Shown: one piece after another, positions 2,616 through 61,500 of the stretch
How positions within the stretch are numbered: position 1 is the stretch's first letter
How the letters are laid out: the number at the start of each line of letters is the position of its first letter
DNA from: Schmidtea polychroa
Lineage: Eukaryota
Direction: 5' to 3'
DNA length: 64,000 nucleotides
Assembly: GCA_044892525.1 (NCBI GenBank)
Contig: CM097886.1
Location: 187,352,312 to 187,416,311 of the forward strand
Translations under genes and position numbers: made by a program
The notes under the pieces: model-generated
Database searches by the model: none
What the model was told of the DNA's origin: nothing
The model's input: the letters and a program-made list of their open reading frames with translations, nothing else

Positions 2616-5600
2616 GTTATGGTGGAATTTTATTTGTTCTGACACTCGGCAACCAGAAAATGTCTTAAGGAATGGCCTAACAGAGGATTTGATCTGTGAG
2701 TGTTCCCTTTATTGGGTCAAGGCAAGGGCTATGTAGGAGACAGCGATTCATGCTGATAAAATGCACAATGATTGCAGCGCTTGTATGTGGTGGTAAGTGT
2801 TGTTGGAAGGTATGGTTGGAGGAGGGGCTGGGGAGGGGGGTATGTGAGGGGCATTGTGATGATCATTTATTGATGTACTGAAGTGACAAGCTGTGAACTT
2901 CGATATCAATTAGTTTCATGAGCTTCGGTGGTTTTGTCATGCCTCTTTGATAATTTATCTTAATTTCTCAATCCTCTTTAGAATGGTTGGCGGTTACCAA
3001 TCAGATGTCATCAAATTCTCCTCAATTATATTCCATGGCAAATTCACCCAATTTAATTCTAGGACAGGAGAGCAAGTGCAAGGTGGATATGGTTAATGGC
3101 CAACATTTCATTAATATTTCATGCGGGTGGACACGAGGATGAACAAATATGGACACCGTCATGGCAGGTAGCTCAGAAATATATGAACAGCATTGGCAAG
3201 CAGTATCTCACCAAGTAATTAATNNNNNNNNNNNNNNNNNNNNNNNNNNNNNNNNNNNNNNNNNNNNNNNNNNNNNNNNNNNNNNNNNNNNNNNNNNNNN
3301 NNNNNNNNNNNNNNNNNNNNNNNNNNNNNNNNNNNNNNNNNNNNNNNNNNNNNNNNNNNNNNNNNNNNNNNNNNNNNNNNNNNNNNNNNNNNNNNNNNNN
3401 NNNNNNNNNNNNNNNNNNNNNNNNNNNNNNNNNNNNNNNNNNNNNNNNNNNNNNNNNNNNTGAAAATGTCCATGAGAAACGTAATCCATAAGTAATATCG
3501 AGAGAGAGAGAGAGAGGAATTATTGTTGATGGCACAATATTGATGCTCGCCCCCCCTTCCTCATCCTCTCACACCCCCCTATCCCAACACCACTTCATAT
3601 AGAACAACTCATGCATATCTGTATCAGATCAGATGATTAGAGGCTGATAAGAATACATGAGAAAGAATGATAAAATCTCCTAGGACATCATTGACAATCA
3701 GATAGTAATATATTCATTCAATATGGCAAATCATGCAGATGAGGGGATAAGAATACTATTCAACTCATGCCGTTCATATCTGGTTGCCCAGTTGACATGA
3801 AATTAGGATATTTATTCTCACATATCAAGGAAATGATCATATGGTGTGAGGAATATGGATAAATAATGCCAAAGGTGGACACAGGCCTTGAGATGGAGCG
3901 GGCAATGAATATCACTAACCTGATTTATGAGCAATGCCTCCCATGACAATTCTCCCAACTATGACAGCCTCCTTCTCATTGCGTACAGTCGCGCCCTAAA
4001 TTATCATTCAAATTATTATTAATTCTATATCATGAAGAATAATAGAGCAACCAGAGGATGTTTGCCCTTTTCTAGCACAACAAATTTTATAGGAATGTCT
4101 CTGTCAGAGAGATGGATCTGTGTATAGCAGCCTTCTAATGGGGACTTGATAATGCGCACCGTATTTTCTGATTTCCTAGCCATTGATTTTGATCGCTCCT
4201 CTGAAACTGGACTCTTTAGTTCTGATTTTGTAGGAGAGCTTGGAGTGACATCTTGTTGAGTGAACTCGTTAATTTCTGAAATCCTCCGTTCCTCAATGCT
4301 AAAGGAAATGTTGGCACATTGGTCATTGGCGTAGCATAGAGCCTGAAAGGTACAGAAATGTATCACAGCGGATATGTCATTATATTGTGAATTGCACATA
4401 TCAAATTGACCAATAAAAATTTCAGAATATGAAGGCCAAAGGTTGAGGACAAATTTGATTGTTGATGTATGTGTAGAATCAATGAACTGTGCAAGGGATC
4501 ATTAATTATATATACTTCATAAAGATGGACAAATGAGAATGGTAAAGGAAAATAATGGAGAACCAAAATGAGCTATATACAGCCTACCCTGTCAATGGTG
4601 GCCATAGGCAATAGGGGACATTAGAATTGATTTCATAGGATTGATTTCATTGTTATTATTTATTAAAAGGCTTGATGATGATGAATCAGTAATATATCGA
4701 TGTGTTTTTGATATTCACGGATTTTCGGCACTGCCTTCTCAGGTGATTCTGATGAAATATTTGATCAATATATTTATTGATTTATTGTTTTCAAGCTTTT
4801 TAATAAATACTACGCAAAATATGTCAGTGGTGATATTTGAAAAAAACATTTTTATTATTGTTTATATTCATTAAATTTTAAAATTTGCCCATATATATAA
4901 TGAATCGAGAATTTGAAAATAAGAAAGATCAAACGAACAAAAAGAAAAGATTAACTATTCAACAAATGAGAGCCCTGTGGGAGCATATGGGAATCAGATC
5001 CAGATAAAAGGCATTTGGAACTTGCATTAAGCAGTATAAACTTGATGATGTTACAACAAAATCCAATAAAGAATAATGAAGAGAGAAATAAGAACAAAAC
5101 GGTCAGGACCAAATTCAAAATGATGGTGAATGGCTTCATTATAATCCAGGATATAAATCCTTTCACGAGATGGCATTAGAACTTTCCAAGCCTTTCGACG
5201 CCAATAATTGTAAAGCTTCAAATGGTTGGATCCAAAGATTTAAACAACGTCACAATATGACTAGTAAATTAATATCTGGCGAGGCTGGATCAGTAAATGA
5301 TAATGACATTGATCAATTCACAACGACCTATGGAAGTAAACTAAAGCAATATAACCCTAGCGATATTTACACCTTGGTTATCCTTTATATGTACTCCGTT
5401 GAGAACATTGGTGATGCAAGGAGGAGATCATGGGAGCAGGAAATGCTCAAAAGAGCGAATAACATAATGATTTGGGGTTAATTTAACTGGAGATAAACGA
5501 ACCCCATTGATGATAGGCAAGGCAAGAAATATAAATCGAATTGATGAGGATGGATGTCATGGGAGGTTTATTTAATGGCTAAGGAAATGGGCGGATAGGG

Positions 5601-14800: not shown

Positions 14801-15189
14801 AAATGAATTATGCAGATATTCTAATTAATTAATTTTTATATCAATGTTATATGTAAAAAAAAATCGTAAATTATGTTTAACGATATTTTTATTATTTTAG
14901 AATTTTATTATTAGTAATTTAAAATATTTAAAGTAAAATATATAATTAAAATTTCTTTAAGATTTTGTTTTAAAGAGATAAATGATGCATTATTACTATA
15001 ACGGTTTCAAAATATTTATGACTTTTCTTTATTTATTTTAACTTTGTTTAATTAATATTTTCTAGAGATAATATTTAATAACATGATATTTCATTTGATA
15101 TTTTTTCTATTTTACATAAATAATTTTTATTAAACTTTTCAATTTATTTTTGTTTATTCATTTTAGATTAGACGTAATTTCTATAGATT

Positions 15190-17239
15190 ATGAGCTCTAA
15201 ATTTTTAAATTCACACCTTCCAAATACTCAAATAGTAAATGGATTTCAAATGCACACAAATCAATCAGTTACATTAAATGTCAACACATTTCAAGTAATT
15301 GGCCAAGGCACTTTTGGATATATAGAAAAAGCTAACGTAAAAACAACGAAATCTGATAGTAACGACAATGAAAGTGCCAAATCTATGAAATTTGTTGGAG
15401 CAATAAAAAAAGTTCATCAAGACCCAAGATATAAAAATCGAGAATTGAATATTATTCAGCGCATTAAATCTCATCCAAATATTGTGGACTTCAAATATTA
15501 TTTCTATAGTATGATTAACAATGAAAACTCAAACAGCAGTAATCAGATATCTAAAAAACAGTCTACAGGAGATATTTATCTTCATCTTGTTATGGAATGT
15601 TTCCCTGAAAGTTTATCTGATTTGATTGTTCGTTATCATCACAATGGAATGATATTATCAATGCTGCATGTTAAAATTTATACTTATCAGATGTTGCGGG
15701 CGCTTGGCTACTTGCATTCCTTCAATATTTGCCACAGGGATATTAAATCATCAAACCTTCTTGTCAATGAGTCTTCCTTAATGTTGAAATTATGTGATTT
15801 CGGAAGTGCAAAAGAATTAATTGCTGGCACGACGAGTGTCAGTTATATCAGTTCCAGGTAAATATTTTTCTTTTTCAATTTCACTTTTGTAATAATAATT
15901 GATATAATGAATATTCATTGGATGATTTAATTAATATAATTGTATTGGATATACAGTGAGCAATCAATGGATGACAGGTGACATCTGTGCATGTGTGCAG
16001 GGGGTGGTATTGACGTCACAGGTCAATGTCGACACACAAATGAATAAATCACGTGAAATATACACACAAACATGCACAGATTCACACTCAGCCGATCGTG
16101 TTTGTGTGTTTTATCAAATGACCGTTTTTACTCATTTGTTGTCATGGTGATCTGTGAGCATTCTCGATTTCTATTGGTGGTTGCGACGGCAGCGGTTGTG
16201 ATCGATGATTGATTGTTGCAGTTTATTGCAGTTGTAGATTACATTAATTTACCAATCAATCAATAATCATCATCATCGACATCTCCACCAATGCCACCGC
16301 CACTGCCAGTCATTTTCTCGGTGGCATTTATTGATTTATTAGCGTTTGTTTCTATTATTGATTATTTTCGGTTAATTGGGAATATTATATATTATATTAT
16401 ATGTTGATAATTTCTGTCGCATACAGCCCAGTCCACCAATCACAGCTGCAGCATTGGGGATTGGCTGACTGGGGGGGGGAGGGGCAGTACAATGCTCCTA
16501 GCACTATGGCAATAATTATTGTTGTATATATCTGTCGGGTCGGATTCCGTAACGCGGATGGCCCCGCGCATTTATATCGGGTGCATATCGGGCCCATTAT
16601 TAGATCAATCAATGCACGCCCCCCCCCCCCGCATATACAGGCCAATCTACACCAAGGGTTGCCATGGTAACGACCAATTGCCACTAGCCATCCCTCTCAC
16701 CCCCCCCCCCCCCCATCAATAACAACAACAACAATAATTACTGATTGCATCGATCCACCCCATTCAGGTATTACCGAGCCCCGGAGCTGCTATTTGGTGC
16801 CCAGCATTACACAACTGCCATTGACGTGTGGAGTGCCGGTTGCGTGCTGGGGGAAATGCTGCGGATGGGCTGCCTGTTCACTGGTAGTGATGCTGTCGAC
16901 CAATTGGTCAAGGTCATCCGAGTGCTTGGCAGCCCATCTGCCGATGACGTCATAGCAATGAATCCCAGCTGCCCCCCCATGAGCCTTCCTCACGTGCTTC
17001 CTTGCCCAATCAAGCTGTTCTTCCCTCACAACTCCCAGCCGGAGCTGCTGGAATTGCTCACATCGATGCTCATTTACAATCCCATCAAGCGCATGCATCC
17101 CACTCGGCTGCTTCTCCATCGCTGCTTTGACGAGTTGCGCAACTTGCGTGACATTCCCAGCCTGTTCTCATTTTTGCCCGAGGAATTGAGCGTACTCGAC
17201 AGCATTGAGCAGAAACGGTTAATCGAGATGGTCATGTAG
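15190..17239 (+). CDS. GSK3: Glycogen synthase kinase-3-like CMGC kinase, two exons (15190-15857, 16768-17239)
   Basis: GQGTFG, AIKKVHQDPRYKNREL, CHRDIK, LKLCDFGSAK, VSYISSR|YYRAPELLFGA, IDVWSAGC, DQLVKVIRVLG. The phase-2 GT-AG intron 15858-16767 restores AGG (Arg). Confidence 0.92.
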
Positions 17240-27621: not shown

Positions 27622-28161
27622 TGTTGGCGTATGTGGAGAAGAAAGAAAAATATGCATGCCTTTCCATCACACCTATCAAGCATCATCGCTCCGTTATACA
27701 TTTTCTACACATACTCCAAATGATTGATTGCATATTCCCACATATGAGCCCATGGTGACGTTCCATGTTGGTGCTGCTCACACGGGTCGGAAAAAGGTTA
27801 GCAGGTGAGCCCCTGCCTTAGGACTACTCCTAACCCTTTCTCGGTTCGGGTCCTACGGTGCCTTAGAAGGACTTACCCACATACATGCGTATCACTCGGT
27901 CTGATCCTGGTCCAAAGGAACAACCTTCAACCCTAATTACCTTCATTCCGCAGCATTATCTCATCTACTCTAATTGCACAAACAAATATATGAAAGCTCG
28001 ACAAAACTGAAAACAAACAGAAAATTTTATTGACACTGAAACGATAAAAATATCATTACCACTAACAGATCAACAGCAGTCAAAAATATATAACATTAGC
28101 AGAATTCACAAGGTAATTTACAACTCGATGAAGAGAGAATCAAGCTCAATTGTACGTCGCA

Positions 28162-28886
28162 TTAGACAAAGTCATCCCCACCGGCAAGCATCTCATCTAT
28201 GTCGACCGGTAGTCGGCTATCTACCATATATTTGATGCCCTCGGCCGGAACAATGCGGAAGACTTCTTTCGAGGGGATTGAATGGGTGGACGATATTTCT
28301 TGGATTTTCGATTTCGCCGCCGATAAGGACGCCTCGAGTGCCGTCATCGCATCTCGGCGTTTTTGATTCTTCTCGGCTCGAGTTGGCCGTTTCCGTTTGC
28401 GGGTAGTCGGGGGGTTTTCTGTGTTCGTGGTGCCGATTGGTGCTACCAAGCTTGGAGCTAAGATGGGATCGGTAGGTCCACCTGTCTTTGGCTGGTGACT
28501 TGACAACACCGGGGCTGGAATGGGCGGCAGTTGTGAGCCGTGCCCCTGACAGTTCGAGCTGGAAGATGTAGAAGACTGGTGGTGAAGGGGAAAGACATTC
28601 ATCCCATCCAGAACGGGAAATTCTCGCACCCGCTTAGCCAATTCTGCCTCCGTATATACCTTATGGAGGGCTTCTGATTGTGCTTTGATAGTGAGCCGCT
28701 GGCAACGGCTTTCCTCTAGCAGGCTGTCCCTGCAATGCTCTAATCGGAGAATTTTCTTGCGTTCCTCTTTCATTTGTGGCGGGGAGAACCACGTTCCTTC
28801 ATAGAGATCAATTCTCTATCCGCGTTCTTGTCCGCACAAGAAAAACACGGGCGAAGTTCTTTGGCGTTGTTGGACGATGTAGCCAT
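28162..28886 (-). CDS. Unknown element-encoded protein (RPCFSCxDKN, coiled coil, basic RKRKRPTRAEK, FRIVP...DEMLAG); one frameshift near 28800
   Basis: ATG at 28886 after TTTTCTAG. Aligns by eye with the element B protein (EGTWFSPPQMKE vs EGTYFSPTQMKE; IKAQSEALHKV vs IKEQSEALHKV). Confidence 0.75.
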
Positions 28887-31283
28887 CTAGAAAATCAATC
28901 ATTGTTTATGTTTACTCGAAAAAACCTCTATCAGTGCGATAAAATCAAATTTTTGGGGCATGGTTTTGGGGTTTTATCAAACATACCACCCAACGATGAC
29001 CCACACACCTCTTCATCCCTCTCTATTCGCAGTCATTCAGTTGCAAGCATTCAAATCTCTTCACCTGATTCGTGTAAATTAAGAAAAGGAAACGGGGATT
29101 TCATACACAAAATTCTCTCTACATAAACCTCGCCCTTTGGATTTGCTTTCGGATGGGACAATTCCCAGGTAAAACTCGTCTTTTACTTTATTCCCTTCAA
29201 CCTTGTTCCCCTTAGTGTATTTTTATTTAAAAATTTGCTGATATCATTATAGTAATCCGTCGACGTAGGCGGGCGTAAAGATTACCGAAAGTTAATTCAT
29301 GGCGACTGATAATTATTACTAATTTTGGCTCGCTCAAAATTATAGAATTAATCATGTAATCAGGTAAAGATTTAGTTCTAAATTTAAATCTAATTGATTT
29401 GAATAACGCGTCGAAAGCGTCACCATGGAGACATCTACTTGTAATTATGCAATACCATTAAATGTTTAGGTGTGTCGATACTCTTAGTGGCATCTGTGCC
29501 TGTGTGTTGGCTATCATCGCTAATGAGTGTTTTATGCTGTTATGAGAGGGTATTAGATGTTGAGTGCGTGGGGAAAATCCCTTCCTATACACCAGCCTAC
29601 TGTCTCGCTGCTCTAGAAAAATTCATATTATCATGCCGCTATTACATCACCAAAAATCGTGGATTTACTTTTACACTGCCCTATGTAGACTTGACTGTGG
29701 TGTGCGTGTGTATGTGCATTCTCAAGTCGGAATAATAGGGGTTGTGTAATAGATACCTCAAACAAGCAGCCGTAGACGAATCGGAAAGTCAGATTAATCA
29801 ATCTGAGTAGGCGACAAATTAGTAGATTATTGAGTAAGCTCGATGTTGTTATCTAATTCTCTTTCACGATATTAATTCAGGCCTATGACTATCAGCTTAT
29901 CCATTTGACATTTCCCCAGAAAATCGACACGTTATCTCCTTCTCTAGGACATTATCAGCTATTTCCTGTCGACTAACCCTACGCTGGCTAATGTAAATCA
30001 ACTGATTTGGTTATCGTTGGCAACTATTGCCTGCGAGCTCGAAGTGAGGATTTTGATAATTTCACTGCAAGATGTTTACTTCCCTGTCAGCGAGAGATTT
30101 TTTATCACTGGCATTGGCGATTCAAAGGACGACAATTCAATCGTAAGAGTACATCGACAATGGATGTAGCCGCTAACGTCCTGACGGCACAAATCAGACA
30201 GAGCCTTGCAAATGCAGTACGTTACCGAAAAATCGTTGGATTTACTCGCAATCTATGGTCAACACTGTTCTTTCCTAACTACGTCGATCGACAGGCTGAA
30301 TATCACGAAAAATTTTCTCCTAGCTATGTGGATTATTATCGAATCAGTACGAACGGCACTGCCTATCTCGATCTGAATTGCCTGCATTCGGAATTTAAAT
30401 CATCTCTACAACTATTGGAAATCTCGGTGTGACTAAATGAACCGATGGTACGCTCTATGGACGATCGCGCTTGATGAAGGAACTTTCACTTCTCAACTGG
30501 ATTTTCCACCTACTGAGTTTCTTCACCCCTCATGACACACCCAAGAAGGCGTTCATTGCTGCCACCTCGCACCGTCATGAGGGACCAATCAACTCGTTTC
30601 CATTCAATTAAATCAACAATAAAATAATCAAACTGAATGATAGGTAAATGCATAAATAAAATTTACCCGGCGACCATATCATTTGGACTCCAAGTATGAT
30701 GTTGCTCATCCTACGTAATCGAAACCTCATCGTCTCCTTGGTGGATCTCTAATATGACAAATATCACTCTCTACAAATATCACATTCTCCTTTCAGCATG
30801 TTCGTGATTTCTTATGCATACCAACCTTTCCACGGTGGTGTCCTCGACTGCAGTACAATTCCAACTCGTCCACATCATACTGGGAGCTCTCAGATGGTAC
30901 AGTCGCCGGTACCATGAAGAAAGGCAGCTTTTCATTTAAATAAATTTATTGTATGAAATTGTTTTATTATATTTATAACAATTAACGAAATTAAACTAAC
31001 AACCATAAATAAAGCAACTGTCGAGGCATACCTTGAGTTTCGAAAACTGGAGTTAAATCGGTTGAATTTACAATTTTTCCTGAATGGATTTGTGGTTTGG
31101 CCTCTATATATTCCTTCCTCGGTTTGGTTTGGTAATCTCTGAACTAGTTCGCTGTAGGATAATTTAGTTAAAGGTTCCGAAATCTGTAATGTCTGTAGAA
31201 TATTTTTTAAAAGTGGTCATAACGAACCAAAGTTTACCTGTAGAATATTTTTTAAAAGTGGTACTCTACAGATATTTTCCGTT

Positions 31284-31311
31284 CCTTATATATTATTTTT
31301 CGTCCAATCAG
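31284..31311 (-). promoter_or_regulatory. Candidate TATA box (TATATAAGG) with upstream CCAAT box in element A
   Basis: CCTTATATA at 31284-31292 and CCAATCAG at 31304-31311; same pair at equivalent positions in B and C. Confidence 0.55.
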
Positions 31312-31810
31312 GACACGACTTGTTTGTATTTTTACTATTTATTATTATTTTTATGTTTTTTATTATAATATATTAGATTTTAATGACTTAACTTATTTCT
31401 TATTATTATTTTATTTATTTTCTTATTTTTATTATTTTCCTCCTATTTTTCCTGTGGATTTATTGCTACTTTATTGTAATATAATTTTTTGTTTTAATTA
31501 GACTTAAAGATAGTTTTATTTTTATTTATTTCTTAAATTTCTCGTTTATTTGTTGTCACTTTTTTACTTATTCTATTCTATTTCATCTGCTGGGTCCTAA
31601 ATCGCTTTATTTCTAAATCTTAAGGGGTTTATTGGGTTTTATTTAGTTTGTTTTACTTATTCTTATTCTCTTATTGATATTTTATTGTTCCTTTTTGATT
31701 TATTAGTGAGAATTTGATGGTACTTTATATTTTTATTTTATTTCGTTTATTTTTCAAGGATTACTTTTCTATTCGCTCCAGTTTTCGAAACTCCGCGTTT
31801 TAGCCCAACA

Positions 31811-33804: not shown

Positions 33805-33959
33805 ATTGAGTGCCCATCAAAAACAGCAACCCACCGCCATATACAATTACTTACTGAGTGGTAGAACCGCTGTTCATAGGCACCCACAGGAATTTTTCCA
33901 TGGGGAATACAAAATGAAATTGATACCGAAAAATGTCCTTACTAGCGGCAGCACTTCGA
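33805..33959 (-). repeat. 155-bp duplicate of 35701-35855 (R2-like ORF piece)
   Basis: Identical by eye to 35701-35855. Confidence 0.9.
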
Positions 33960-33966
33960 GTCTGGA

Positions 33967-35669: not shown

Positions 35670-36750
35670 CATACAGGTCTATCTCAGTGTTGTTTATGGC
35701 ATTGAGTGCCCATCAAAAACAGCAACCCACCGCCATATACAATTACTTACTGAGTGGTAGAACCGCTGTTCATAGGCACCCACAGGAATTTTTCCATGGG
35801 GAATACAAAATGAAATTGATACCGAAAAATGTCCTTACTAGCGGCAGCACTTCGATCCTCCTGGAATAGTCTCTGTATAGCCCCATAAATAGCCCTCTTT
35901 CTAGCTACCTTTATGTGCTTTTTAACCTTAGTACCATCCACGGGGCCTGGTACGTTCTTTTACGCTTACTTGTTCTCTTTTTGAGTTTCACTTGAAACTG
36001 CTTAGTTACTGATAAGCAATATTCATCAAGTAAAACTCTTTGAGAATCTTTATCTTCAGTGAGGATTATCCTGTCCAGTTGGTCCTCGTGCCAAATGCTA
36101 TGACCCTCGCTTCGAGGGAATTTCCTTAATATAGTCATGATGTCTGGAGATGGGCGTGGGGCTTGCGGGTTCTCCATCGCCTGCTCCAAGCCCATCCCCT
36201 TCATCCTGTCTTCTAACTCTTTAAAAACTGCTTTATATTTTTACTATCTAAATCCTTGCGAATGGATTCCTTTGAACGTTTGAAGGCTGAACATCCAAGG
36301 TGAAATATTTCTAGAAGGTGAGATTGAGGTCTATAACGATTTTTAAGGTGAAGTTGAGCCATGAGGAGCTCTTCTTCATAACTCCAGTAGTAAGCAGGTT
36401 TATTGGATAGTTTCCTCAAGATAGCCTCACCACGTAAGGTGCGATGGGCTCTAGATATATGGACTCCAGTCCCCTCAGCATTAAGAAAGGTAAAAAGCAA
36501 TATTTACAGACAAACGACTGTTCCACATCCCTCTCCCGTTTTGTAGCGTTGTTATTTCCTGTAATTTATCTTTAATTTTGTTTTGTGGGAGTTCTTTCCT
36601 GTTGGATATCCAACTTACCAAAAGGTAAAAAATAGTGAAAGGGGACCTCACCGAGGAAGTGGTGTTGGGAGGAAGGAAAGGTTTATATGAAAAAATTCTT
36701 AACAAAATTGCCCTCATCACAAAACGTGACGAGGAATAATATATCAATAG
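35670..36750 (-). mobile_element. 5' remnant of an R2-like (RLE) non-LTR retrotransposon ORF: C2H2 zinc finger, Myb-like domain, pre-RT region; RT and endonuclease missing
   Basis: FVCKYC/frameshift/FLNAEGTGVHISRAH, then YWSYEEELLMAQ...RSKESIR, then RKRAIYGAIQRLFQEDRSAAA. Several frameshifts and stops. Confidence 0.7.
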
Positions 36751-40373: not shown

Positions 40374-40978
40374 TGCTGGGTCTTGGGTCGGATCAGAAAA
40401 ATACCACTTTCACATTAGGGGTTGATAGTCCTAACTGCACAAGCAACACATCATCATTCTACAGGACCCTTAACCAAAACCCACACGATCATACTCCGAA
40501 CATGACACCCATGATTCACATCATGTTGGTGCTGTGTCATGTCGGCGAGCTACGATGGAGCAGGTGAGCCCCTGCCTTAGGACTACTCCCCCATCGCAAC
40601 TCGACTTAACCATCACTCGACTGCCGATAGAAGGACTTACGTCATCATCATCATTCTACGATCTCTTGTATCACTCTGATTTGCATTCAAACTCTGTTAC
40701 AACACTCAACTCGCTAGTTTGGTCTTTATTTAGCGTTCAACAGTAAATTTTTCCACATTACCATCATTTTTATCCTTTCTAAATTAAGCTTTATCATATC
40801 TCTTCCACATTTTAATTCCATCACTCGTTATCCAATCCCCTAATCAACCATTCATCATACTCAAGCATTCAACATCATTTAATTTGACAAGTCACAATGA
40901 AGAAAAATGTATTAACGCATTATTACATTAAAAGTACATTGATAGGTGCTACAATTTTGTAGAACAACGTAGATATAA

Positions 40979-41775
40979 TCACAGAGTGCTTGGAGAAGCT
41001 CCAGCAAAGATCTCATCGAGATCGAAAAAATCTTTGGCGTTTTCTTTCCATGAGGAATCGACGGGCGGGACTACCCGGAAGATAGGAAGAGAATGCAGGG
41101 TGGATTCTACCGGAGGTACTGGAGTTGGCTGTTGAACAGAGGCGATCAGAGCCGCTTCTCTTTCGGCCTGGAGGGCCCTTCTTCTTTTAGTACGCTCAGC
41201 CCTGGATGGCTGGCGACGCTTCTTGATCTTCTTCACCTCCGGAAGAGTGACCGGGGCTGTTAAGTCCACTATTCTGGGTTCAGCGCGACTTGTGCCGGTA
41301 CAGACGACCTCGGCTGGGAAATGCTCGAGTGGCTTAAGCTGGCCTGGTTTAATGGTTTCACCAACGAGATACCTGAGAGGTGGTGGGACGGGAATAAATT
41401 GTCTTCTTCCGCGAGTGGAATATTGACTATCTTCCTTGTGACCGACGCTTGGACGAACACTTTGTGTAACGCCTCGGATTGCTCTTTAATGAGGGCACGC
41501 AGAGCGCGATTTTCCTCTAGTACATCATCGCGACATTTTTCCACTCGTGTGAGTCTCGTCCTCACCTCTTTCATTTGAGTGGGGGAAAAATACGTCCCTT
41601 CTAGGTGATCTGACTTCTTCTTAAGGAGGCCAATTTGTGCTTGTAACGTTTGAATCATCTGATTTTTATCAGAGCAAGAAAAGCATGGGCGCAAGATCGT
41701 AGCATTGGTTGAAGCTTTTGACATTTTAGCAATGTAAATGTTTTCATTAACCCTATCCTCCCTCTTTTCATCCAA
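40979..41775 (-). CDS. Element B copy of the unknown CxxC/coiled-coil/basic protein; frameshift near 41270
   Basis: ORFs 41269..41775 and 40979..41269 together align with the element A protein. Confidence 0.75.
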
Positions 41776-41839
41776 ACGTCATCCATCATAACTCGTTACA
41801 TCATTTCTCAATCATGCCAAGCTTTCATCAATCCTGATG

Positions 41840-42007
41840 GCCACAACAATAATAATAATGATGACACTCATATCGACCATAACGACCACATTAGTAACAA
41901 TATTAAGACTAATGGTAATAATAATGACAAGAACAACAATCGTAACAATCACCACAATAACGACAACAATAACAACCCCAACAATCATAATAACTAATGA
42001 TAATGAT
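41840..42007. repeat. (AAT/AAC/GAC)n microsatellite running into a gap
   Basis: Trinucleotide low complexity; explains ORF 41837..42502. Confidence 0.85.
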
Positions 42008-44699
42008 NNNNNNNNNNNNNNNNNNNNNNNNNNNNNNNNNNNNNNNNNNNNNNNNNNNNNNNNNNNNNNNNNNNNNNNNNNNNNNNNNNNNNNNNNNNNN
42101 NNNNNNNNNNNNNNNNNNNNNNNNNNNNNNNNNNNNNNNNNNNNNNNNNNNNNNNNNNNNNNNNNNNNNNNNNNNNNNNNNNNNNNNNNNNNNNNNNNNN
42201 NNNNNNNNNNNNNNNNNNNNNNNNNNNNNNNNNNNNNNNNNNNNNNNNNNNNNNNNNNNNNNNNNNNNNNNNNNNNNNNNNNNNNNNNNNNNNNNNNNNN
42301 NNNNNNNNNNNNNNNNNNNNNNNNNNNNNNNNNNNNNNNNNNNNNNNNNNNNNNNNNNNNNNNNNNNNNNNNNNNNNNNNNNNNNNNNNNNNNNNNNNNN
42401 NNNNNNNNNNNNNNNNNNNNNNNNNNNNNNNTAGCAATAGTTCATGGGAATCCTCCATCTACCCCTAATACACTGAGAAAAAGAAATGTCAGAGTTCATT
42501 GACTTTACATGAAAATGGTACCTCCCCCCTCAAGAATTGCTTTAATTACTTCGAGTTTACTATATCAATCAAATTAATTTTAATATCAAATAAGAGAGAA
42601 TTGTAAATTTTTGGTATTCTAGATATTATCAGCTTAGGTGTTAACTTTATTTGGAGATTAAATTTTTGCATTCGCCATCTACTAAGTTTGGTGTTCGTGT
42701 AATCTTATTAGTGTCAGATAGTTATCGGCGATTGATGCCTTACGTGTACGGTGGGAATGGGTCTTGTGTGGATACATATGTGGCGATTAACTAATTTCCT
42801 CGTCGGCTCATGCGTGTGTGGTTATCCATGATGCTATTTTTCATATAGGTGGATTTTAGTACCAGAGTATCTCGTGCGAATGATCGCCTGTGTCGGTGTT
42901 ACTTCTTAATCACTGTAATCTACCAGTTGTGAATGAGCAGCTAAAGTGGCTTGTAATTATTGTGGCAGTTCTATCGCCAACATCGTACTGGAGTAAATGT
43001 GGAATTTTATGGAATGATTTGACTTCAATCATCTAGAATTCGGTTTACGATAAAATGAGGGCAAGTGGGATTTCTTGAAGTAGTTATACCTAACGCAATA
43101 CGGTTGTGAAATGCGAAACGATTTATGTTAGATGGAAATTCATGGTTTATCTGTGAAAATTTAAATTCACTACGACTTGCTTATTTCACAATTTTGGTCA
43201 ATTTGACTATCAATGGCGGAGGCCGTTTTGTTTGTTAATAATATACATAGATATACTGGATCTCACGCCACGTACCAGAGTCATAAGTCGCGAATTCTGA
43301 GAATAATTACTGTATATCAACTAAGTCTAAGGCTTTGTTAGTAGAAATTCATCGTATCGCTGATTTAACTAATGTGACATGATCGTGCCTCTACTTCTCA
43401 TTACTACTCTGAGTGTTCCGAAAGAGCGCCGATTCCACTGGATCAACGATCGAATTTACGATGAAAGGTCTAGATTAACACGATATATGAATTTTGTATA
43501 AGTTGCGATAACGACGATGAAAATCAAGAGATAATGACTTTCCGACAACATCCGATGAACGAGGATTGGATCACCCTAGTCATTGCGAAGGTTCTCCCAC
43601 ACTACTTTCACGAAATTTTCTATTGTTTCAATACATTATTCTTCTCTATTACTTTTTAGCTCCACTTTTCCTGTGGCGACGGATCAGTGAGGAAGCCCCC
43701 ACGATGACCCGCTCAACCACCACGTCGCTGATGTTGTACCTGACCTTCTGGCGAGAGGAACCACCCGTGTCCCTCAAGCTGTGGCCAGTTGAGCCTCAGT
43801 GTCGCTTGACATCAAAATTAAATAGCCTATTGCACAATTTATAATAGTTAAATTCCATAATATTCAATAAAATCTAAATAAGAATGAATTACAAAAATTT
43901 AAGATTTATTGGTGAACAGGAAAAACTGTTAACAATTTACCTAAGTAAAGTTATTATTATCATTACTAGCTTAATAAAAGGTTTACAATGAATAACAAAT
44001 TTTACTTCGTACAAATTGAATGGTTCTCCGAATGATTTGTCTAGCTGATTATCCTTGAGTTAGTCCGGTATAGTAGTTGCGAAGTACCTTAATGGATTTT
44101 TTGATTAACACTGAAAATTCTAATTCAGTGTTTTCCTTATATACTAATTTTTGTGTTTATGCGAGCCAATCAGAATTGAGTGCGGCGTAATTTTTTAATT
44201 TAATTCGTTTTCTTAGTTTTCCTAGTGTTTTCCTTACTGTTTTCTTTTATTTTTTATTTATTTTCTTATTTATTATTTAATTTCTATTATTTTACTATTT
44301 TTTCCGGTTTCTATATCTTAATTTTTAATTTTTTATTTTTTGTTTTAATTCTTTTTGGTTAATTTTTTTTTATTATTTATTCCTATTGTTTATTTGTCTA
44401 TGTTTTTAATTTGTTTTCGCTTTGTTTCCTAATTTTATTTTATTTCTTATTGTTTTCTTCTTAGGTTTTTTAAATTATTATTTTACTTTCTAGCGCAACA
44501 ATTCGATCTATCATATTATCATTAAATAAAATAATTTATCTGAAAAGAAAAGAGAACAGTAGATCAAAATTTTCAATTGTTATTTCATTACTAATAAAAA
44601 TAGCTTATAAAAATGAATATAAATTACTACATTAAACTAAAAGCAAATAAAATTTTACATGTTCTACTGTTGGAGTCTGAAAAATTAGTGGAGTCCGCA

Positions 44700-45387
44700 A
44701 TAAGTTGAATATCGACTGGTTGTTCTCTGTCCTGATTGGTGATTACTAGGTGAAATTTGATTGAGTAGTGGTAGTCCTAGATTGAAAATTCTAAAACTGA
44801 GGGAATTAACCGCTCTATTTTCTTATATTCTGGATTCTATCCAATCAGAATCCAGTAAGGTTGTATTATTGTGTTTTCTCGTTTTTTTTCTTTTTTATTC
44901 TTTTCTTATGTTTTCTTTATTATTTTTTGTGATTTTGTTAATAAATATTTTTTAATATTCTTATTTTCTTTTTTTGGTTTTTGGGGTATTTTATGCTCGT
45001 GATTTTATGCTTTACTTATTTTATCTTTAATTCTTATTTCTATTTTTTGGTTTTGTTATTATCATTTTAATTTTCTCGTTATTTCTTTTATGGCTATTAT
45101 TTTTCTATTATTTTTCTTTCTTAGGGGAATTTACTTAAGGTTTTTTATTGATTTTTCTGTTATTTTTATTTCTGATTATCAGTTTTTTCATCTCACTCTT
45201 TATTCTTCCTCTCTACTTCGCTAATTCCCCACTTAACTTAATTCCTATTTAGTTATTTAATATGGCGGTTTGGACTCACTAAGTTATCAGCCCAACACCG
45301 TGAATTTTAATTCAACTTGGTGCGATTTTTATGTTATGTATTTCCGATTCATTCAAACAACTCTCAATCCTCGCTTCTAGCCCAACA
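44700..45387 (-). mobile_element. Element C: truncated promoter-end fragment of the A/B family
   Basis: CTTATA (44822) plus CCAATCAG (44841), T-rich tract, and terminus TTCTAGCCCAACA at 45387, with a second AGCCCAACA at 45297. Confidence 0.6.
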
Positions 45388-47283: not shown

Positions 47284-50200
47284 TCGTAGGCCCTAGGCAC
47301 TTTTAGCTTGGGAGACCCTCTCGCATAATTTTTTGTCAGTACAGTATCCCTAATGAAGTCAGCTATATCGCTAATTTTTAAAATGCGTTAATAATTCCAT
47401 AGTGCTTTATTTTAACAACATTTTATTTTATGAATGTTATTTTAAGAACTTTATTTTTTTCTTTATGTTGTGTTATAACACAACCGAGCGTTTTTCTACT
47501 ACGCCCGAAATTGCGTATTTCGTATGTATGTATAACGTTGATGAGTATACTATTTATTATACTTTAAATGTTTTTTTCTAAGTTTAAATCCCACGTATTA
47601 AAAAAATAATCCTCCTGCAAAAATATTCAACCCGCCTGCTATGATTGCTATGGTTAATTATCAATAGCGATTTTTTACATATAGGAGTGAATTTAAATTT
47701 GCGTATTTAGTAGCTGTGGATTTATGGTTGCAATTGTTTTTTTGTAGTACTTTTTTTACAATTAGTTTTCAGAAAAATTTAAGAATTATAATAGTGTTTA
47801 TTCTTTGTTAAAGTTATCTATAGTTATGTTATTTATAAACGATAATATTTCTGTAAACTGTAAATATTAATTGTTTAAAAGTAAGTCTTCTTTTTTAAAT
47901 ATATAATAATTTAATAAAAATATTAATATATATGTAATTCCAAATATAAATTATTTAATAGTAAATCAAAAAACAAGTGATTTGTATCAAAAGGAATTCT
48001 AATTGAAGTACATATATTAAAAAGTTCCAGTTGTATTAACAATAATAAAAACAAGCATCTCTATATAAAATCTATAAAAGTGTAGATTAAGTATATTGTT
48101 CATAGAACTGAAATTCTTGAAGTAAGTATACATAATATTAAATATTTTCCTCTAACTATAAAAATTATATTTAGTTTTGCCAGTTTAAAATTTAAAGAAA
48201 TGTCTGACGGATATAAGAGAAAACATGAGTCAGGCTCAGAAAAGCGTAAAAAGAAAATTGTCAAAGAAGAAGCATTGAAAAACATGAAAGGTTCACTACT
48301 CAAATATATAACAGCAACAAGAGGAAATAATGAAAGCTGTTCTACAAATGTAAACGAATTTATTGGACCAGAAAACCAAAATCAAAATAAAACTTCAGAA
48401 CAATTATCATGTGGTAGTAGTGGTACAGAAGATATTGGTACTGATAAACAGGGCACGTATACAGGTGAGACAGAGGTAGTAGAAGGTCAAACTTCTGCCG
48501 AAATAATTATATCTTTAGAGGATAATATAATAGAAATATCTAATGAAATATCAAAAGTTAATTTAAACTTAAAATATAATAATGATCCAGCTAATTGGGA
48601 TATTACTGCTGATCTCATAAATTATTTTTCTGAAAATAAGCCTTCGCGAAATATAGATTTCAATTTTCTCTTGAAGGGTAGAAAATATGGAGACAAAACC
48701 AGATATCCACGTAAAGAATATTTTATCAGGAAATTAACAAATGGGGAAACAATCGAAAGAGACTGGCTTATATATTCTCCGTCAACTGGAACAGTACATT
48801 GTTATATCTGCAAGCTTTTCCCTAGAGTGAACGTGAACGTAATTCTCAATCAATTTAAAATTGGATTTGATGATTGGAAAAATGCAATGTCCAGGATTAC
48901 ATCACATGAAAAATCAAAAGATCATCTTGACGCAGTATCAGCTATGTTTCAATTACAGAAGAACAGTAAAATTGATGTAGAACTACAGAAAGAGAAAGAT
49001 AAATTATGTAAATACTGGATTGAAGTTTTAAAGAGAATAGTTGCCGTAATAAAATTTCTATCTGAAAGAGGTTTGCCATTCCGTGGGAATAATGAAATTC
49101 ATAATTGTTCTAATAATGGAAATTATCTTGGTTGTATCGATCTTATAGCCGAATTTGATCCTTTTTTAAAGGAGCATATTCGAAGACATGGAAATCCTGG
49201 AAGAGGAAATGTTTCCTATTTATCTAATATTATATGTGAAGAATTTATTGGTATACTAGAATCCAAGGTAACAACGCAGATAATATCTGAAATTAAAGAA
49301 GCGAAATATTATGGAATCAGCATTGATTCAACTCCTGATATCAGTCATATGGACCAGATTACCGTGATAATTCGGTACGTACTTAAATGTGGAAATGTGG
49401 TTGAACGATTTTTAAAATTTATTGCAATTGAACAACACGATGGAAAATATTTATTCGACATTATACGACATACTTTGGAACATCATAACATAAGTATTGG
49501 AAATTGCAGGTCCCAATCATATGATAACGCCAGTAATATGAGCGGCATATATACAGGTGTACAAGCTAGATTTAGAGAAATAAATAAACTGGCGTAATGG
49601 GTTCCATGTGCTGCACATAGTCTTAATTTGGTGGGTTCAACTGCTGTGGAGTGTTGCCTGGAAGCAGTAAAGCTTTTTGGAATTTTAGAAGCAATATATA
49701 CTTTTTTTTCCGCTTCACCACAGAGATGGTCCAAATTTAAAGACAATATGAAAGAAAATACTTGTGTTGTAAAAAATTTATCAGAAACCAGATGGTCTGT
49801 ACGACATGATGCTACTAAAGCTCTATTCATGAATTATTCAGAAATTCAAAAAGCATTGTTTGAAATAACTGAAAGCGAACGTCAGCCTGCAGTGGCTGTG
49901 CAGGAAGCTAAATCTTTAATAAAAAACCTGAACAATTTTGAAACAGCATTGATGTGTGTTATTTGGAATGATTTATTGCAAAATATTAATATTTTCAATA
50001 AAGCTCTGCAGGAGACTGGCATAGAATTATGTACCATTGTCAAATTATTTAAAACTCTCATAGCTTACTTTCATGGTATTCGTATAGAGTTTGATAAATT
50101 TGAAACCATGGCAAAAAAACTTACAACTTCCGAATATAAACAACATACACAACGTAAACGAATAAGAAATAGATTTTTTGACGAAGTTTTAGACAACACC

Positions 50201-50977
50201 GATCCTAGTTTGAGCCTGAGTGCAAGTAACAAATTTCGTATTGAATCTTTTTATATAATAGTAGATAAACTTATTATTGAGATGCGTAAACGTCTTGAAG
50301 CATACGGAATGTTATATGAAAGGTTTAATTTTTTAGTGGACAGAACTTTGACAAATGATGAAATAGTTTCGAAAGCAAACAAGTTAGTGCAAATATATTC
50401 TTCAGATGTTGAAGATGCATTTTGTGACGAGTTTTTATTATTTTCACGAATGTATGGAGATAAAAAATCAGTGAACGAAATGTTAGTTGCACAAATAAAT
50501 GATAAATTAGTTACCAGTTTTCCCAATGTAAATATTGTGTTACGAATTTATTTATCAATATTTGGTACGAATGCGGAAGGGGAACGTAGTTTTTCAAAGC
50601 TTAAAAGAATTAAAAATTGTCTCCGATCAACTATGGGGCAGGAACGATTGTCAGCACTAACACTTTTATCTATTGAAAGTGATTTAATGCGAGAGATTAG
50701 TTTCGATGAGGTTATTGTCGAATTCGCAAATAAAAAATGCAGAAAAGTTATTTTAGAAAATAATTGAATAAATTGTTTACTAAATTAATGTTATTTTTTT
50801 ATATTTTTTTGAAAATAAATTTTTAATTATTATGAATTAAATCAATTTTTTTTTCATGCTCTGGTTAAATATTTATAATATACATTTTTCGTAAGTATAA
50901 ATACATATTTTCGTAGGCCATTTAATATTCGTAGGCCCTAGGCAATGTGCCTACTGTGCCTATGGGATAATGCGCGC

Positions 50978-55544: not shown

Positions 55545-58500
55545 ATATTTATCAACCATATTTATCAACCATATTTATCAACCATATTTATCCACAATAT
55601 TTATCCACAATATTTATCCACAATATTTATCCACAATATTTATCAACAATATTTATCCACAATATTTATCCACAATATTTATCAACCATATTTATCAACA
55701 ATATTTATCCACAATATTTATCAACCATATTTATCAACAATATTTATCAACAATATTTATCCACAATATTTATCAACAACATTTATCAACAACATTTATC
55801 AACCATATTTATCCACAATATTTATCCACAATATTTATCAACCATATTTATCAACAATATTTATCCACAATATTTATCAACAATATTTATCAACAATATT
55901 TATCCACAATATTTATCAACCATATTTATCAACAATATTTATCCACAATATTTATCAACCATATTTATCAACAATATTTATCAACAATATTTATCCACAA
56001 TATTTATCAACAACATTTATCAACAACATTTATCAACCATATTTATCCACAATATTTATCCACAATATTTATCAACCATATTTATCAACAATATTTATCC
56101 ACAATATTTATCAACCATATTTATCAACAATATTTATCAACAATATTTATCCACAATATTTATCAACAACATTTATCAACAACATTTATCAACCATATTT
56201 ATCCACAATATTTATCCACAATATTTATCAACAATATTTATCAACAATATTTATCCACAATATTTATCAACCATATTTATCAACAATATTTATCCACAAT
56301 ATTTATCAACCATATTTATCCACAATATTTATCCACAATATTTATCCACAATATTTATCCACAATATTTATCAACCATATTTATCCACAATATTTATCCA
56401 CAATATTTATCCACAATATTTATCAACAACATTTATCCACAATATTTATCCACAATATTTATCCACAACATTTATCCACAATATTTATCCACAATATTTA
56501 TCAACCATATTTATCCACAATATTTATCCACAATATTTATCAACAATATTTATCCACAATATTTATCCACAATATTTATCAACAACATTTATCAACAATA
56601 TTTATCCACAATATTTATCCACAATATTTATCAACAACATTTATCCTCAATATTTATCAACCATATTTATCAACCATATTTATCCACAATATTTATCCAC
56701 AATATTTATCAACCATATTTATCCACAATATTTATCCACAATATTTATCCACAATATTTATCAACCATATTTATCCACAATATTTATCCACAATATTTAT
56801 CAACAACATTTATCCACAATATTTATCAACAACATTTATCAACAATATTTATCCACAATATTTATCAACAATATTTATCCACAATATTTATCAACAACAT
56901 TTATCCACAATATTTATCCACAATATTTATCAACAACATTTATCCACAATATTTATCCACAATATTTATCCACAATATTTATCCACAATATTTATCCACA
57001 ATATTTATCAACAATATTTATCCACAATATTTATCCACAATATTTATCAACAATATTTATCAACAATATTTATCAACAATATTTATCCACAATATTTATC
57101 CACAATATTTATCCACAATATTTATCCACAATATTTATCCACAATATTTATCCACAATATTTATCCACAATATTTATCCACAATATTTATCCACAATATT
57201 TATCAACAATATTTATCCACAATATTTATCCACAATATTTATCAACAATATTTATCAACAATATTTATCAACAATATTTATCAACAACATTTATCAACAA
57301 TATTTATCCACAATATTTATCCACAATATTTATCCACAATATTTATCCACAATATTTATCCACAATATTTATCAACAATATTTATCAACAATATTTATCA
57401 ACAATATTTATCAACAATATTTATCAACAACATTTATCCACAATATTTATCCACAATATTTATCCACAATATTTATCAACAATATTTATCAACAATATTT
57501 ATCAACAATATTTATCAACAATATTTATCCACAATATTTATCCACAATATTTATCAACAATATTTATCCACAATATTTATCAACAATATTTATCAACAAT
57601 ATTTATCAACAACATTTATCCACAACATTTATCAACAATATTTATCCACAATATTTATCAACAACATTTATCCACAATATTTATCCACAATATTTATCAA
57701 CAATATTTATCCACAATATTTATCAACAATATTTATCAACAATATTTATCAACAATATTTATCCACAATATTTATCCACAATATTTATCCACAATATTTA
57801 TCCACAATATTTATCAACAATATTTATCAACAACATTTATCCACAACATTTATCAACAACATTTATCCACAATATTTATCCACAATATTTATCCACAATA
57901 TTTATCCACAATATTTATCAACAATATTTATCAACAATATTTATCAACAATATTTATCAACCATATTTATCCACAATATTTATCCACAATATTTATCCAC
58001 AATATTTATCCACAATATTTATCAACAATATTTATCAACAATATTTATCAACAATATTTATCAACAACATTTATCAACAACATTTATCCACAATATTTAT
58101 CCACAATATTTATCCACAATATTTATCAACAATATTTATCAACAACATTTATCCACAATATTTATCCACAATATTTATCCACAATATTTATCAACAATAT
58201 TTATCAACAATATTTATCAACAATATTTATCCACAATATTTATCAACAATATTTATCAACAACATTTATCCACAATATTTATCCACAATATTTATCCACA
58301 ATATTTATCAACAATATTTATCAACAACATTTATCCACAATATTTATCCACAACATTTATCCACAATATTTATCCACAATATTTATCCACAATATTTATC
58401 AACAATATTTATCAACAATATTTATCAACAACATTTATCAACAACATTTATCCACAATATTTATCCACAATATTTATCCACAATATTTATCAACAATATT

Positions 58501-61500
58501 TATCAACAACATTTATCCACAATATTTATCCACAATATTTATCCACAATATTTATCAACAATATTTATCAACAATATTTATCAACAATATTTATCAACAA
58601 TATTTATCAACAACATTTATCCACAACATTTATCCACTATATTTATCAACAATATTTATCCACAATATTTATCCACAATATTTATCCACAATATTTATCC
58701 ACAATATTTATCAACAATATTTATCAACAACATTTATCCACAACATTTATCAACAACATTTATCCACAATATTTATCCACAATATTTATCCACAATATTT
58801 ATCAACAATATTTATCAACAACATTTATCCACAATATTTATCCACAATATTTATCAACCATATTTATCCACAATATTTATCCACAATATTTATCAACAAT
58901 ATTTATCCACAATATTTATCCACAATATTTATCAACAACATTTATCAACAATATTTATCCACAATATTTATCCACAATATTTATCAACAACATTTATCCT
59001 CAATATTTATCAACCATATTTATCAACCATATTTATCCACAATATTTATCCACAATATTTATCAACCATATTTATCCACAATATTTATCCACAATATTTA
59101 TCCACAATATTTATCAACCATATTTATCCACAATATTTATCCACAATATTTATCAACAACATTTATCCACAATATTTATCAACAACATTTATCAACAATA
59201 TTTATCCACAATATTTATCAACAATATTTATCCACAATATTTATCAACAACATTTATCCACAATATTTATCCACAATATTTATCAACAACATTTATCCAC
59301 AATATTTATCCACAATATTTATCCACAATATTTATCCACAATATTTATCCACAATATTTATCAACAATATTTATCCACAATATTTATCCACAATATTTAT
59401 CAACAATATTTATCAACAATATTTATCAACAATATTTATCCACAATATTTATCCACAATATTTATCCACAATATTTATCCACAATATTTATCCACAATAT
59501 TTATCCACAATATTTATCCACAATATTTATCCACAATATTTATCCACAATATTTATCAACAATATTTATCCACAATATTTATCCACAATATTTATCAACA
59601 ATATTTATCAACAATATTTATCAACAATATTTATCAACAACATTTATCAACAATATTTATCCACAATATTTATCCACAATATTTATCCACAATATTTATC
59701 CACAATATTTATCCACAATATTTATCAACAATATTTATCAACAATATTTATCAACAATATTTATCAACAATATTTATCAACAACATTTATCCACAATATT
59801 TATCCACAATATTTATCCACAATATTTATCAACAATATTTATCAACAATATTTATCAACAATATTTATCAACAATATTTATCCACAATATTTATCCACAA
59901 TATTTATCAACAATATTTATCCACAATATTTATCAACAATATTTATCAACAATATTTATCAACAACATTTATCCACAACATTTATCAACAATATTTATCC
60001 ACAATATTTATCAACAACATTTATCCACAATATTTATCCACAATATTTATCAACAATATTTATCCACAATATTTATCAACAATATTTATCAACAATATTT
60101 ATCAACAATATTTATCCACAATATTTATCCACAATATTTATCCACAATATTTATCCACAATATTTATCAACAATATTTATCAACAACATTTATCCACAAC
60201 ATTTATCAACAACATTTATCCACAATATTTATCCACAATATTTATCCACAATATTTATCCACAATATTTATCAACAATATTTATCAACAATATTTATCAA
60301 CAATATTTATCAACCATATTTATCCACAATATTTATCCACAATATTTATCCACAATATTTATCCACAATATTTATCAACAATATTTATCAACAATATTTA
60401 TCAACAATATTTATCCACAATATTTATCCACAATATTTATAAACAATATTTATCAACAACATTTATCAACAACATTTATCCACAATATTTATCCACAATA
60501 TTTATAAACAATATTTATCAACAATATTTATCAACAACATTTATCCACAATATTTATCCACAATATTTATCCACAATATTTATCAACAATATTTATCAAC
60601 AATATTTATCAACAATATTTATCCACAATATTTATCAACAATATTTATCAACAACATTTATCCACAATATTTATCCACAATATTTATCCACAATATTTAT
60701 CAACAATATTTATCAACAACATTTATCCACAATATTTATCCACAACATTTATCCACAATATTTATCCACAATATTTATCCACAATATTTATCAACAATAT
60801 TTATCAACAATATTTATCAACAACATTTATCAACAACATTTATCCACAATATTTATCCACAATATTTATCCACAATATTTATCAACAATATTTATCAACA
60901 ACATTTATCCACAATATTTATCCACAATATTTATCCACAATATTTATCAACAATATTTATCAACAATATTTATCAACAATATTTATCAACAATATTTATC
61001 AACAACATTTATCCACAACATTTATCCACTATATTTATCAACAATATTTATCCACAATATTTATCCACAATATTTATCCACAATATTTATCCACAATATT
61101 TATCAACAATATTTATCAACAACATTTATCCACAACATTTATCAACAACATTTATCCACAATATTTATCCACAATATTTATCCACAATATTTATCAACAA
61201 TATTTATCAACAATATTTATCAACCATATTTATCCACAATATTTATCCACAATATTTATCCACAATATTTATCCACAATATTTATCAACAATATTTATCA
61301 ACAATATTTATCAACAATATTTATCAACAACATTTATCAACAATATTTATCCACAATATTTATCCACAATATTTATCCACAATATTTATCAACAATATTT
61401 ATCAACAACATTTATCCACAATATTTATCCACAATATTTATCCACAATATTTATCAACAATATTTATCCACAATATTTATCCACAATATTTATCCACAAT

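Follow-up and report, generated by a model that had tools for sequence, protein, structure and literature searches.

Solo long terminal repeats with a gene of their own, very probably derived from Burro-type giant Gypsy retrotransposons, in Schmidtea polychroa

Two elements of just over 4 kb, here called A and B, lie in a 64,000-nt stretch of the Schmidtea polychroa genome (GenBank assembly GCA_044892525.1, contig CM097886.1, positions 187,352,312 to 187,416,311, forward strand; hereafter the window), and we hold with high confidence that both are solo long terminal repeats (LTRs) of Burro-type giant Gypsy retrotransposons carrying, within the repeat, a gene maintained by selection. Their identity as Burro-type solo LTRs is established for A and well supported for B, which is a solo LTR of an older family, and an adjacent piece, fragment C, is a truncated LTR of a third, sister family. 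The element class is already known, and the parents of A are assigned to Burro by their architecture. The original prediction, made from the letters of the window, had described an unclassified family with TG...CA ends and 4-bp target-site duplications (TSDs), and proposed either giant gene-carrying solo LTRs or a new non-autonomous class mobilised by an integrase. Its positions, ends and TSDs for A and B are as claimed, and fragment C is real too, but the label "unclassified" was wrong, given that the parent elements fit the Burro type known from planarians (PMC6431247). Likewise, the reported lack of gag, reverse transcriptase and integrase holds inside the window but not genome-wide, since these genes lie between paired copies elsewhere. 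The elements in the window are:

27622..31810, minus strand: element A, solo LTR of a Burro-type giant Gypsy retrotransposon (4,189 bp, TSD CATC)
40374..44500, minus strand: element B, well supported as a solo LTR of a sister Burro-type family (4,127 bp, TSD ATTC)
44520..45297, minus strand: fragment C, ~780 nt from the start of a third family's LTR (44 matches)
45298..45387, minus strand: a 90-nt stub that resembles by sequence match the start of another LTR (TGTTGGGC)

The termini of A are TGTTGG...CCAACA, flanked on both sides by CATC within a 28-bp tandem array, and those of B (424 of whose 4,127 bases are masked) are TGCTGG...GCAACA, flanked by ATTC at the end of a 32-bp array; both elements sit in satellites. 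An A-rich tract is common to the two. Their DNA has diverged as predicted while the protein was kept: blastn finds a single shared exact block of 31 nt (27800-27830 in A, 40559-40589 in B), whereas the minus-strand proteins are 50% identical in their N-terminal part and 29% in their C-terminal part (E-value 4e-28). We equated fragment C, for which the original prediction gave no coordinates, with 44520-45297; all four of its relatives that were fetched have a homologue of the open reading frame (ORF) described below, and two of them the RNA block within the fetched stretch. The adjoining stub matches loci of a distant Burro-type family at 79% over 86 nt.

Parent elements of A and B

A genome-wide search of the 781-Mb S. 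polychroa genome with the ORF of A gave 6,178 candidates, and among the 150 that were scored, about 25 same-strand pairs (counted by eye) lie 26-27 kb apart. Three pairs that were fetched each proved to be the two LTRs, 99.1-99.9% identical, of one element, with element sizes of 30.8, 25.3 and 30.3 kb, the 25.3-kb element being internally shorter than the other two. Element A is 97.6% identical over its full length to both LTRs of the 25.3-kb element, and is therefore a solo LTR of a Burro-type element; it also aligns end to end with the LTRs of the 30.8-kb element at 90-91% identity. A-type copies thus occur in pairs as the LTRs of elements of 25-31 kb that have gag-pol and a primer-binding site, in line with the first of the two proposals and at odds with a new non-autonomous class.

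One fetched element has an open frame of 4,744 amino acids (aa) in which Pfam matches follow the order Retrotrans_gag, CCHC, Bcl-2 (weak, E-value 0.035), viral fusion glycoprotein (E-value 6e-72), protease, reverse transcriptase, RNase H, integrase and ankyrin. Accessory ORFs flank it, one with a RING domain upstream of the polyprotein frame and a RING+MATH ORF plus three unnamed ones downstream; of the RING, MATH/TRAF and BIR motifs that mark the accessory genes of Burro, the Pfam scan of element ORFs gave RING and MATH matches and no BIR at E-values up to 0.05. This organization resembles that of Burro (GYPSM1), the giant Gypsy-like LTR retrotransposons of planarians, in the features covered by the sections of PMC6431247 used here: a total of about 30 kb with an internal region of about 22 kb (up to 25 kb in Burro); one polyprotein of ~4,700-4,900 aa with gag, CCHC knuckles and a Bcl-2-like region; an env-like fusion protein between the Bcl-2-like region and the protease, followed by reverse transcriptase, RNase H, integrase and ankyrin; and RING and MATH accessory modules. 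It differs in the placement of MATH, located here in the separate downstream RING+MATH ORF but in ORF1 of Burro1 and in an upstream ORF of a Dugesia element (PMC6431247). The text and legend of that source dealing with Burro mention neither an ORF nor an RNA structure inside the LTR. Burro elements are described, in the parts of the sources cited, as abundant, expressed and PIWI-controlled (PMC8532177, PMC11410931, PMC13238120).

Past the 5' LTR lie 18 nt complementary to the 3' end of the tRNA-Pro of this genome, and this primer site follows 64 A-type LTR ends. TSDs, which we tabulated as the original prediction had suggested, are consistently of 4 bp: in all eight A-type solos (a ninth locus being a 5' LTR), in two of the three full elements, the third having one mismatch, and, of 16 B-type loci fetched, in 10 of the 12 that have both ends (one exception has a mismatch and the other is a 3' LTR). 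Of the gag-pol region, primer-binding site and polypurine tract that were to be sought between paired copies, the first two were found and a canonical polypurine tract was not.

For B, the connection to Burro is well supported by one relative, ~80% identical in DNA, that forms the 3' LTR following two accessory genes of Burro (81% and 56% identical), with a junction sequence the same as at 3' LTRs, together with the shared ORF, promoter and RNA structure. The 30 kb upstream of one B-type 3' LTR contain accessory genes but no gag-pol, and two nearby LTR pairs have no Burro gag-pol in between, the LTRs of one pair each having their own TSD. Old LTR families commonly persist only as solos.

Several side observations concern these giant elements. 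The primer site lies about 7-8 nt from the LTR end instead of 0-3, and the 3' LTR is preceded by a conserved GC-rich junction, with GTGATT as its last bases and no plain purine run; both the priming and the processing of the ends may be out of the ordinary. The tRNA-Pro(TGG) genes form a long tandem array with a 475-bp period on contig C1 near 130.9 Mb, and the tRNA-Pro 3' pattern has 2,190 matches genome-wide. There is also a second giant family, ~36 kb in size, with numerous recent copies that are identical; its LTRs, of roughly 5.6 kb, contain a short ORF of their own and a variant of the RNA fold described below. In two Burro-type elements the gag-pol DNA is 88-96% identical, the 3' accessory genes only 71-78%, the LTRs cannot be aligned and the LTR proteins are about 35% identical; here, the LTR plus the 3' cassette looks to have been exchanged as a module between Burro-type elements.

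The LTR gene, its RNA structure and its predicted protein

Within A and B, read on the minus strand, the following features make up the predicted gene and the RNA structure that follows it:

31285..31310, minus strand: A, inverted CCAAT box + TATATAAG, putative promoter (motif pair in 18 of 21 LTRs)
31234..31239, minus strand: A, candidate splice donor AG|GTAA, ~55 nt downstream of the TATA box (motif)
28887..28900, minus strand: A, candidate splice acceptor right before the ATG of the ORF (motif)
28162..28886, minus strand: A, LTR-encoded ORF, 253 aa in intact sisters, broken near 28817
28026..28031, minus strand: A, AATAAA about 130 nt past the stop codon, not kept in all families
27738..27880, minus strand: A, three-part RNA structure including the 31-nt block, ~120-260 nt from the LTR 3' end
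44136..44173, minus strand: B, inverted CCAAT box + TATATAAG (motif)
40979..41724, minus strand: B, LTR-encoded ORF, 252 aa in intact sisters, broken near 41270
40495..40645, minus strand: B, the same RNA structure, with different stems that still pair (pairing)

Much of what had been claimed for this region withstood comparison with other copies. The A-rich tract, CCAAT and TATA motifs occur in both elements, with CCAAT inverted on the coding strand; the frames are broken at different sites, near 28817 in A (a 37-nt gap relative to a sister copy) and near 41270 in B; and the ORF is on the minus strand as stated, but the predicted length of ~260 aa has to be corrected to the 252-253 aa of intact ORFs. 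Selection on the ORF, also proposed, is supported as purifying by the ratio of nonsynonymous to synonymous substitution rates (dN/dS), for which 22 pairs among 26 open-frame copies were compared: dS was saturated in seven and measurable in 15, where the ratio is 0.06-0.20, falling to 0.02-0.07 in the N-terminal domain (residues 10-115). Mismatches among ORF copies fall mostly at third codon positions. Intact sisters of 238-253 aa form three main families with 35-42% mutual identity, and a distant family, whose polyprotein is 33-67% identical and whose LTR measures ~5.6 kb, has a ~166-codon frame at the same place in the LTR; a member aligns weakly with the ORF profile (hhalign probability 65%, E-value 6e-5, 35 columns).

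Upstream of the ORF, most of the 18 matches to the inverted CCAAT box and TATATAAG fall between LTR positions 330 and 520; two are placed further into the LTR, probably because the LTR start was mis-called. An AG|GTA donor motif stands at TATA+52-54 in 14 of the 18 LTRs having the promoter match, and 19 of 21 LTRs have an acceptor-like site no more than 14 nt from the ATG of the ORF, compared with 103 of 905 other ATGs, under a rule that was fixed only after the sequences had been inspected; the B copy has no acceptor before its ATG. These motifs suggest an mRNA with a short leader, an intron of ~2.3 kb and one coding exon. As an additional observation, the ~25-nt leader exon ending at the candidate donor (window 31190-31260) is tandemly duplicated in A and several families, with differing sequences.

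The "conserved terminal block" of the original prediction is the core of a folded RNA of ~140 nt. In an alignment of 16 non-redundant copies from three families, 440 of 464 cells are paired and 22 of 29 columns have changed on both sides; pairing reaches 92%, against 35-56% in slid controls. Adding four copies of the distant family gives 537 of 580 paired cells, with an 8-nt bulge and its opposed G retained. The stems of A and B are almost wholly different, yet pairing is kept, and nearly invariant unpaired bases occur in the three RNA domains. Folding z-scores range from -1.8 to -5.6 and are lower on the gag-pol strand in 20 of 20 cases, a strand that G-U pairs also favour. A 26-nt pattern of the core is matched exactly at 1,348 sites of the genome, and its reversed control at none. 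The structure matched none of 4,227 Rfam families at E-values up to 1-2, and covariation for a pseudoknot was not established. A likeness to twister or twister-sister in certain loop words was rejected because the bases concerned are paired here and covary.

The protein has no Pfam match; a search of 5.8 billion proteins, covering near lengths, gave 407 candidates and none at E-value 0.001; the top Atlas matches, at most 0.86, are leads only; and Foldseek comparison of the predicted model, whose predicted local distance difference test score (pLDDT) averages 62, against viral and PDB libraries gave none at E-value 0.001. That model places helices at 15-42 and 48-100, then a disordered linker, a helix at 182-213 starting from the basic patch and a short C-terminal helix, without a membrane helix. 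For residues 8-116 the prediction is a homodimer whose chains run parallel and in register, Cys14 and Cys17 lying at the interface. It scored 0.60 where the best control scored 0.00, its contacts agreed to 92% between runs, and pLDDT was 83 or higher; among solved homodimers the same mark is attained by 21 of 30 from microbes and 17 of 29 from eukaryotes (7 of 16 for animals), and among single chains by 0 of 23 and 0 of 30. The model thus supports, without demonstrating, dimerisation of the protein as a CxxC-capped parallel coiled coil. A C-terminal tail, F[FL]D[LI]DE[LI] or VDIDEML, is kept across families despite 35% overall identity, the basic helix is conserved as well, and V[IV]DLT motifs occur in two of the three families.

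A profile search found 16 distant homologues, many of them with RRRPNRNRRRRERRR-type Arg-rich stretches forming a longer Arg-rich helix; in one of the 16 this stretch has a sub-threshold match to Pfam REV (E-value 0.0013). The stretches resemble the helices of Rev or lambda N, a likeness that may be compositional. Most of these homologues (10 of 16 were looked up) are chimeras with a single member each, joining the ORF to unrelated domains of host or transposase origin. These public records are probably mis-joined gene models spliced into intronic solo LTRs and not real fusions; some could nonetheless represent real exon capture via the strong acceptor.

Possible roles of the LTR gene and other features of the window

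Burro-type elements inserted into satellite arrays with a 4-bp TSD, and recombination between their two LTRs, a step taken from established LTR biology, would have left the solos. The gene in the LTR would consist of a promoter near the 5' end, a short leader exon, the ~2.3-kb intron, an exon of ~250 codons and the structured RNA near the 3' end; the LTR would be large because a whole gene lies inside. Since the promoter is near the LTR 5' end, both ORF and RNA structure lie downstream of the predicted start, and a solo LTR could therefore be a complete gene. The most likely role of the protein is to regulate the element in the nucleus, as a coiled-coil dimer followed by a variable linker, a helix rich in Arg and Lys, and a tail that is acidic and hydrophobic. 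Our leading guess, a tentative one drawn by analogy, is that it acts in the manner of Rev or Rex together with the LTR RNA element: the element would choose between a short spliced LTR message and an unspliced RNA of 25-30 kb; the small spliced mRNA would yield the protein, whose basic helix would bind the LTR RNA structure; and the bound protein would allow read-through of the long genomic RNA, its escape from splicing or its exit from the nucleus.

Several points weigh against this account or parts of it. The transcript start, splicing and 3' end are predicted from sequence motifs, AATAAA is not conserved and four of the 16 LTRs listed have no such hexamer past the ORF. The role of the protein is proposed from motifs, in the face of the negative Pfam, sequence, Atlas and fold searches; a coiled-coil dimer is an easy shape for a model to pass, and the basic helix could equally be a nuclear-localisation signal. 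The dN/dS estimates took open-frame copies only, and their pairs share ancestry and are not independent. As for the RNA, the rows of the alignment were chosen by motif and folding energy, two of them are mis-anchored, the register of the third domain was set by best pairing, and kinship among the sequences inflates the covariation counts. A canonical polypurine tract directly before the 3' LTR was not found, and the primer site is about 7 nt from the LTR end. Finally, no full-length element of the B subfamily was found, none of 70 exact LTR ends preceding a primer site.

It is possible, though we would not call it probable, that the protein, dimeric and equipped with a nuclear-localisation signal and an activating tail, acts at the level of DNA as a transactivator or anti-silencing factor, on the model of foamy-virus Tas or HTLV (human T-cell leukaemia virus) Tax, and that the RNA structure separately serves reverse transcription, packaging or 3'-end formation. 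The dimer model fits this alternative, as does the conserved C-terminal tail, which we take to resemble acidic activation motifs, and so do the V[IV]DLT motifs, presumably of a SUMO-interaction-like kind; moreover, structured RNA near the LTR end is common in retroelements. However, searches with the protein model found no DNA-binding fold, and the longer Arg-rich helix of the distant homologues, including the one with the sub-threshold REV match, looks more like RNA-binding helices.

We regard as rather unlikely a second alternative, in which the protein targets the host instead of the element RNA, the LTR being merely its seat, as in the Sag of mouse mammary tumour virus (MMTV) or the apoptosis and ubiquitin modules of Burro. 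Burro carries RING, MATH and Bcl-2-like modules, and the inhibitor of apoptosis protein (IAP) of Burro1 is said to protect stem cells (as cited in PMC13465017). The sharp difference in LTR and 3' genes between elements with closely similar gag-pol DNA is also what exchanged or fast-evolving cargo would leave. By contrast, the low dN/dS of the N-terminal domain fits a core role, and so does the persistence of the ORF upstream of the RNA structure even where the polyprotein is only 33-67% identical.

The RNA structure may instead be a self-cleaving ribozyme or processing signal that forms the 3' end of the LTR transcript independently of the protein, a reading that is improbable but does not exclude the others; the nearly invariant unpaired bases and the inconstant AATAAA speak for it, the empty Rfam search and the pseudoknot result against it. 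Least credible, to the point of near dismissal, is that A and B are a new non-autonomous class or Ginger-like DNA transposons moved as 4-kb units, because, even if the B subfamily is almost only free-standing with TSDs and without primer sites, A-type units are paired around gag-pol (which refutes the idea for A), a B-type unit stands behind Burro 3' genes with the 3'-LTR junction, old LTR families often survive as solos, and no transposase or long terminal inverted repeat (TIR) was found, the units having only 6-bp inverted ends and an ORF without an integrase match instead of the long TIRs and internal transposase of Ginger.

An intron-containing gene under strong selection plus a deeply conserved, unclassified RNA fold would explain why these Gypsy LTRs reach 4-5.5 kb, and would provide a handle on how an RNA of 25-30 kb gets made and exported. 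Hundreds of solo LTRs may be expressed genes, in animals in which one Burro element is reported to influence the survival of stem cells. Should the Rev/Rex-like account prove true, each intact solo LTR would form an independent expression unit with the capacity to regulate full-length elements in trans, and the matches to the RNA core would imply over a thousand such LTRs in the genome.

Elsewhere in the window, a hAT-type transposase with DUF4371 and hAT dimerisation domains (48086-50767) is split by a single stop into frames of 503 and 389 aa, and fragments at 1571-2071 and 5092-5481 resemble by eye Tigger/CENP-B-type transposases. Positions 15187-17239 hold exons of a protein kinase that, judged by eye from its motifs, looks GSK3-like. 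A 13-bp satellite of more than 650 copies with extreme strand skew fills 55545-64000, a direct duplication of ~150 bp links 33810-33960 and 35700-35855, and a 109-aa frame at 35911-36240 has no Pfam match.

Comparison with known systems

The element class, LTR-encoded genes in a few retroviruses (MMTV sag) and export switches in complex retroviruses were known before. In the literature covered, outside which fall Grohme 2018, Jurka 2007 and Lee 2026, neither an ORF nor an RNA fold is described for Burro LTRs; figures or supplements of the primary Burro papers could contain the ORF already. The plant Ogre elements are comparable in that their LTRs are very long (1.9-6.5 kb) and that they have additional ORFs without a known function, but in Ogre, as described in the cited part of PMC6431247, these ORFs sit in the internal region.

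Closer to the mechanism proposed here are Rex with its Rex response element (RxRE) in HTLV-1 and Rev with its Rev response element (RRE) in human immunodeficiency virus (HIV), for which the portion of PMC3434621 consulted describes a small protein made from a spliced mRNA, an Arg-rich motif and multimerisation. The RxRE of HTLV-1, moreover, is a structured stretch of 255 nt within the LTR, and it also brings the poly(A) signal into position (PMC3434621). The differences are that there is no sequence homology, that Rex is not LTR-encoded and that binding and export are hypothetical in our case. An LTR-internal, intron-containing regulatory gene with its response element would represent an independently evolved Rev/Rex- or Tat-like switch in an invertebrate retrotransposon, a speculative view that we regard as rather unlikely for now. 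MMTV sag, as presented in the section of PMC11998498 cited, provides the other likeness, being a protein-coding gene inside an LTR and subject to recombination. Sag is, however, a type II membrane superantigen of a retrovirus (PMC11998498), whereas the LTR ORF has neither a predicted membrane helix nor homology to it and, in contrast with sag, lies downstream of the only conserved promoter of its LTR.

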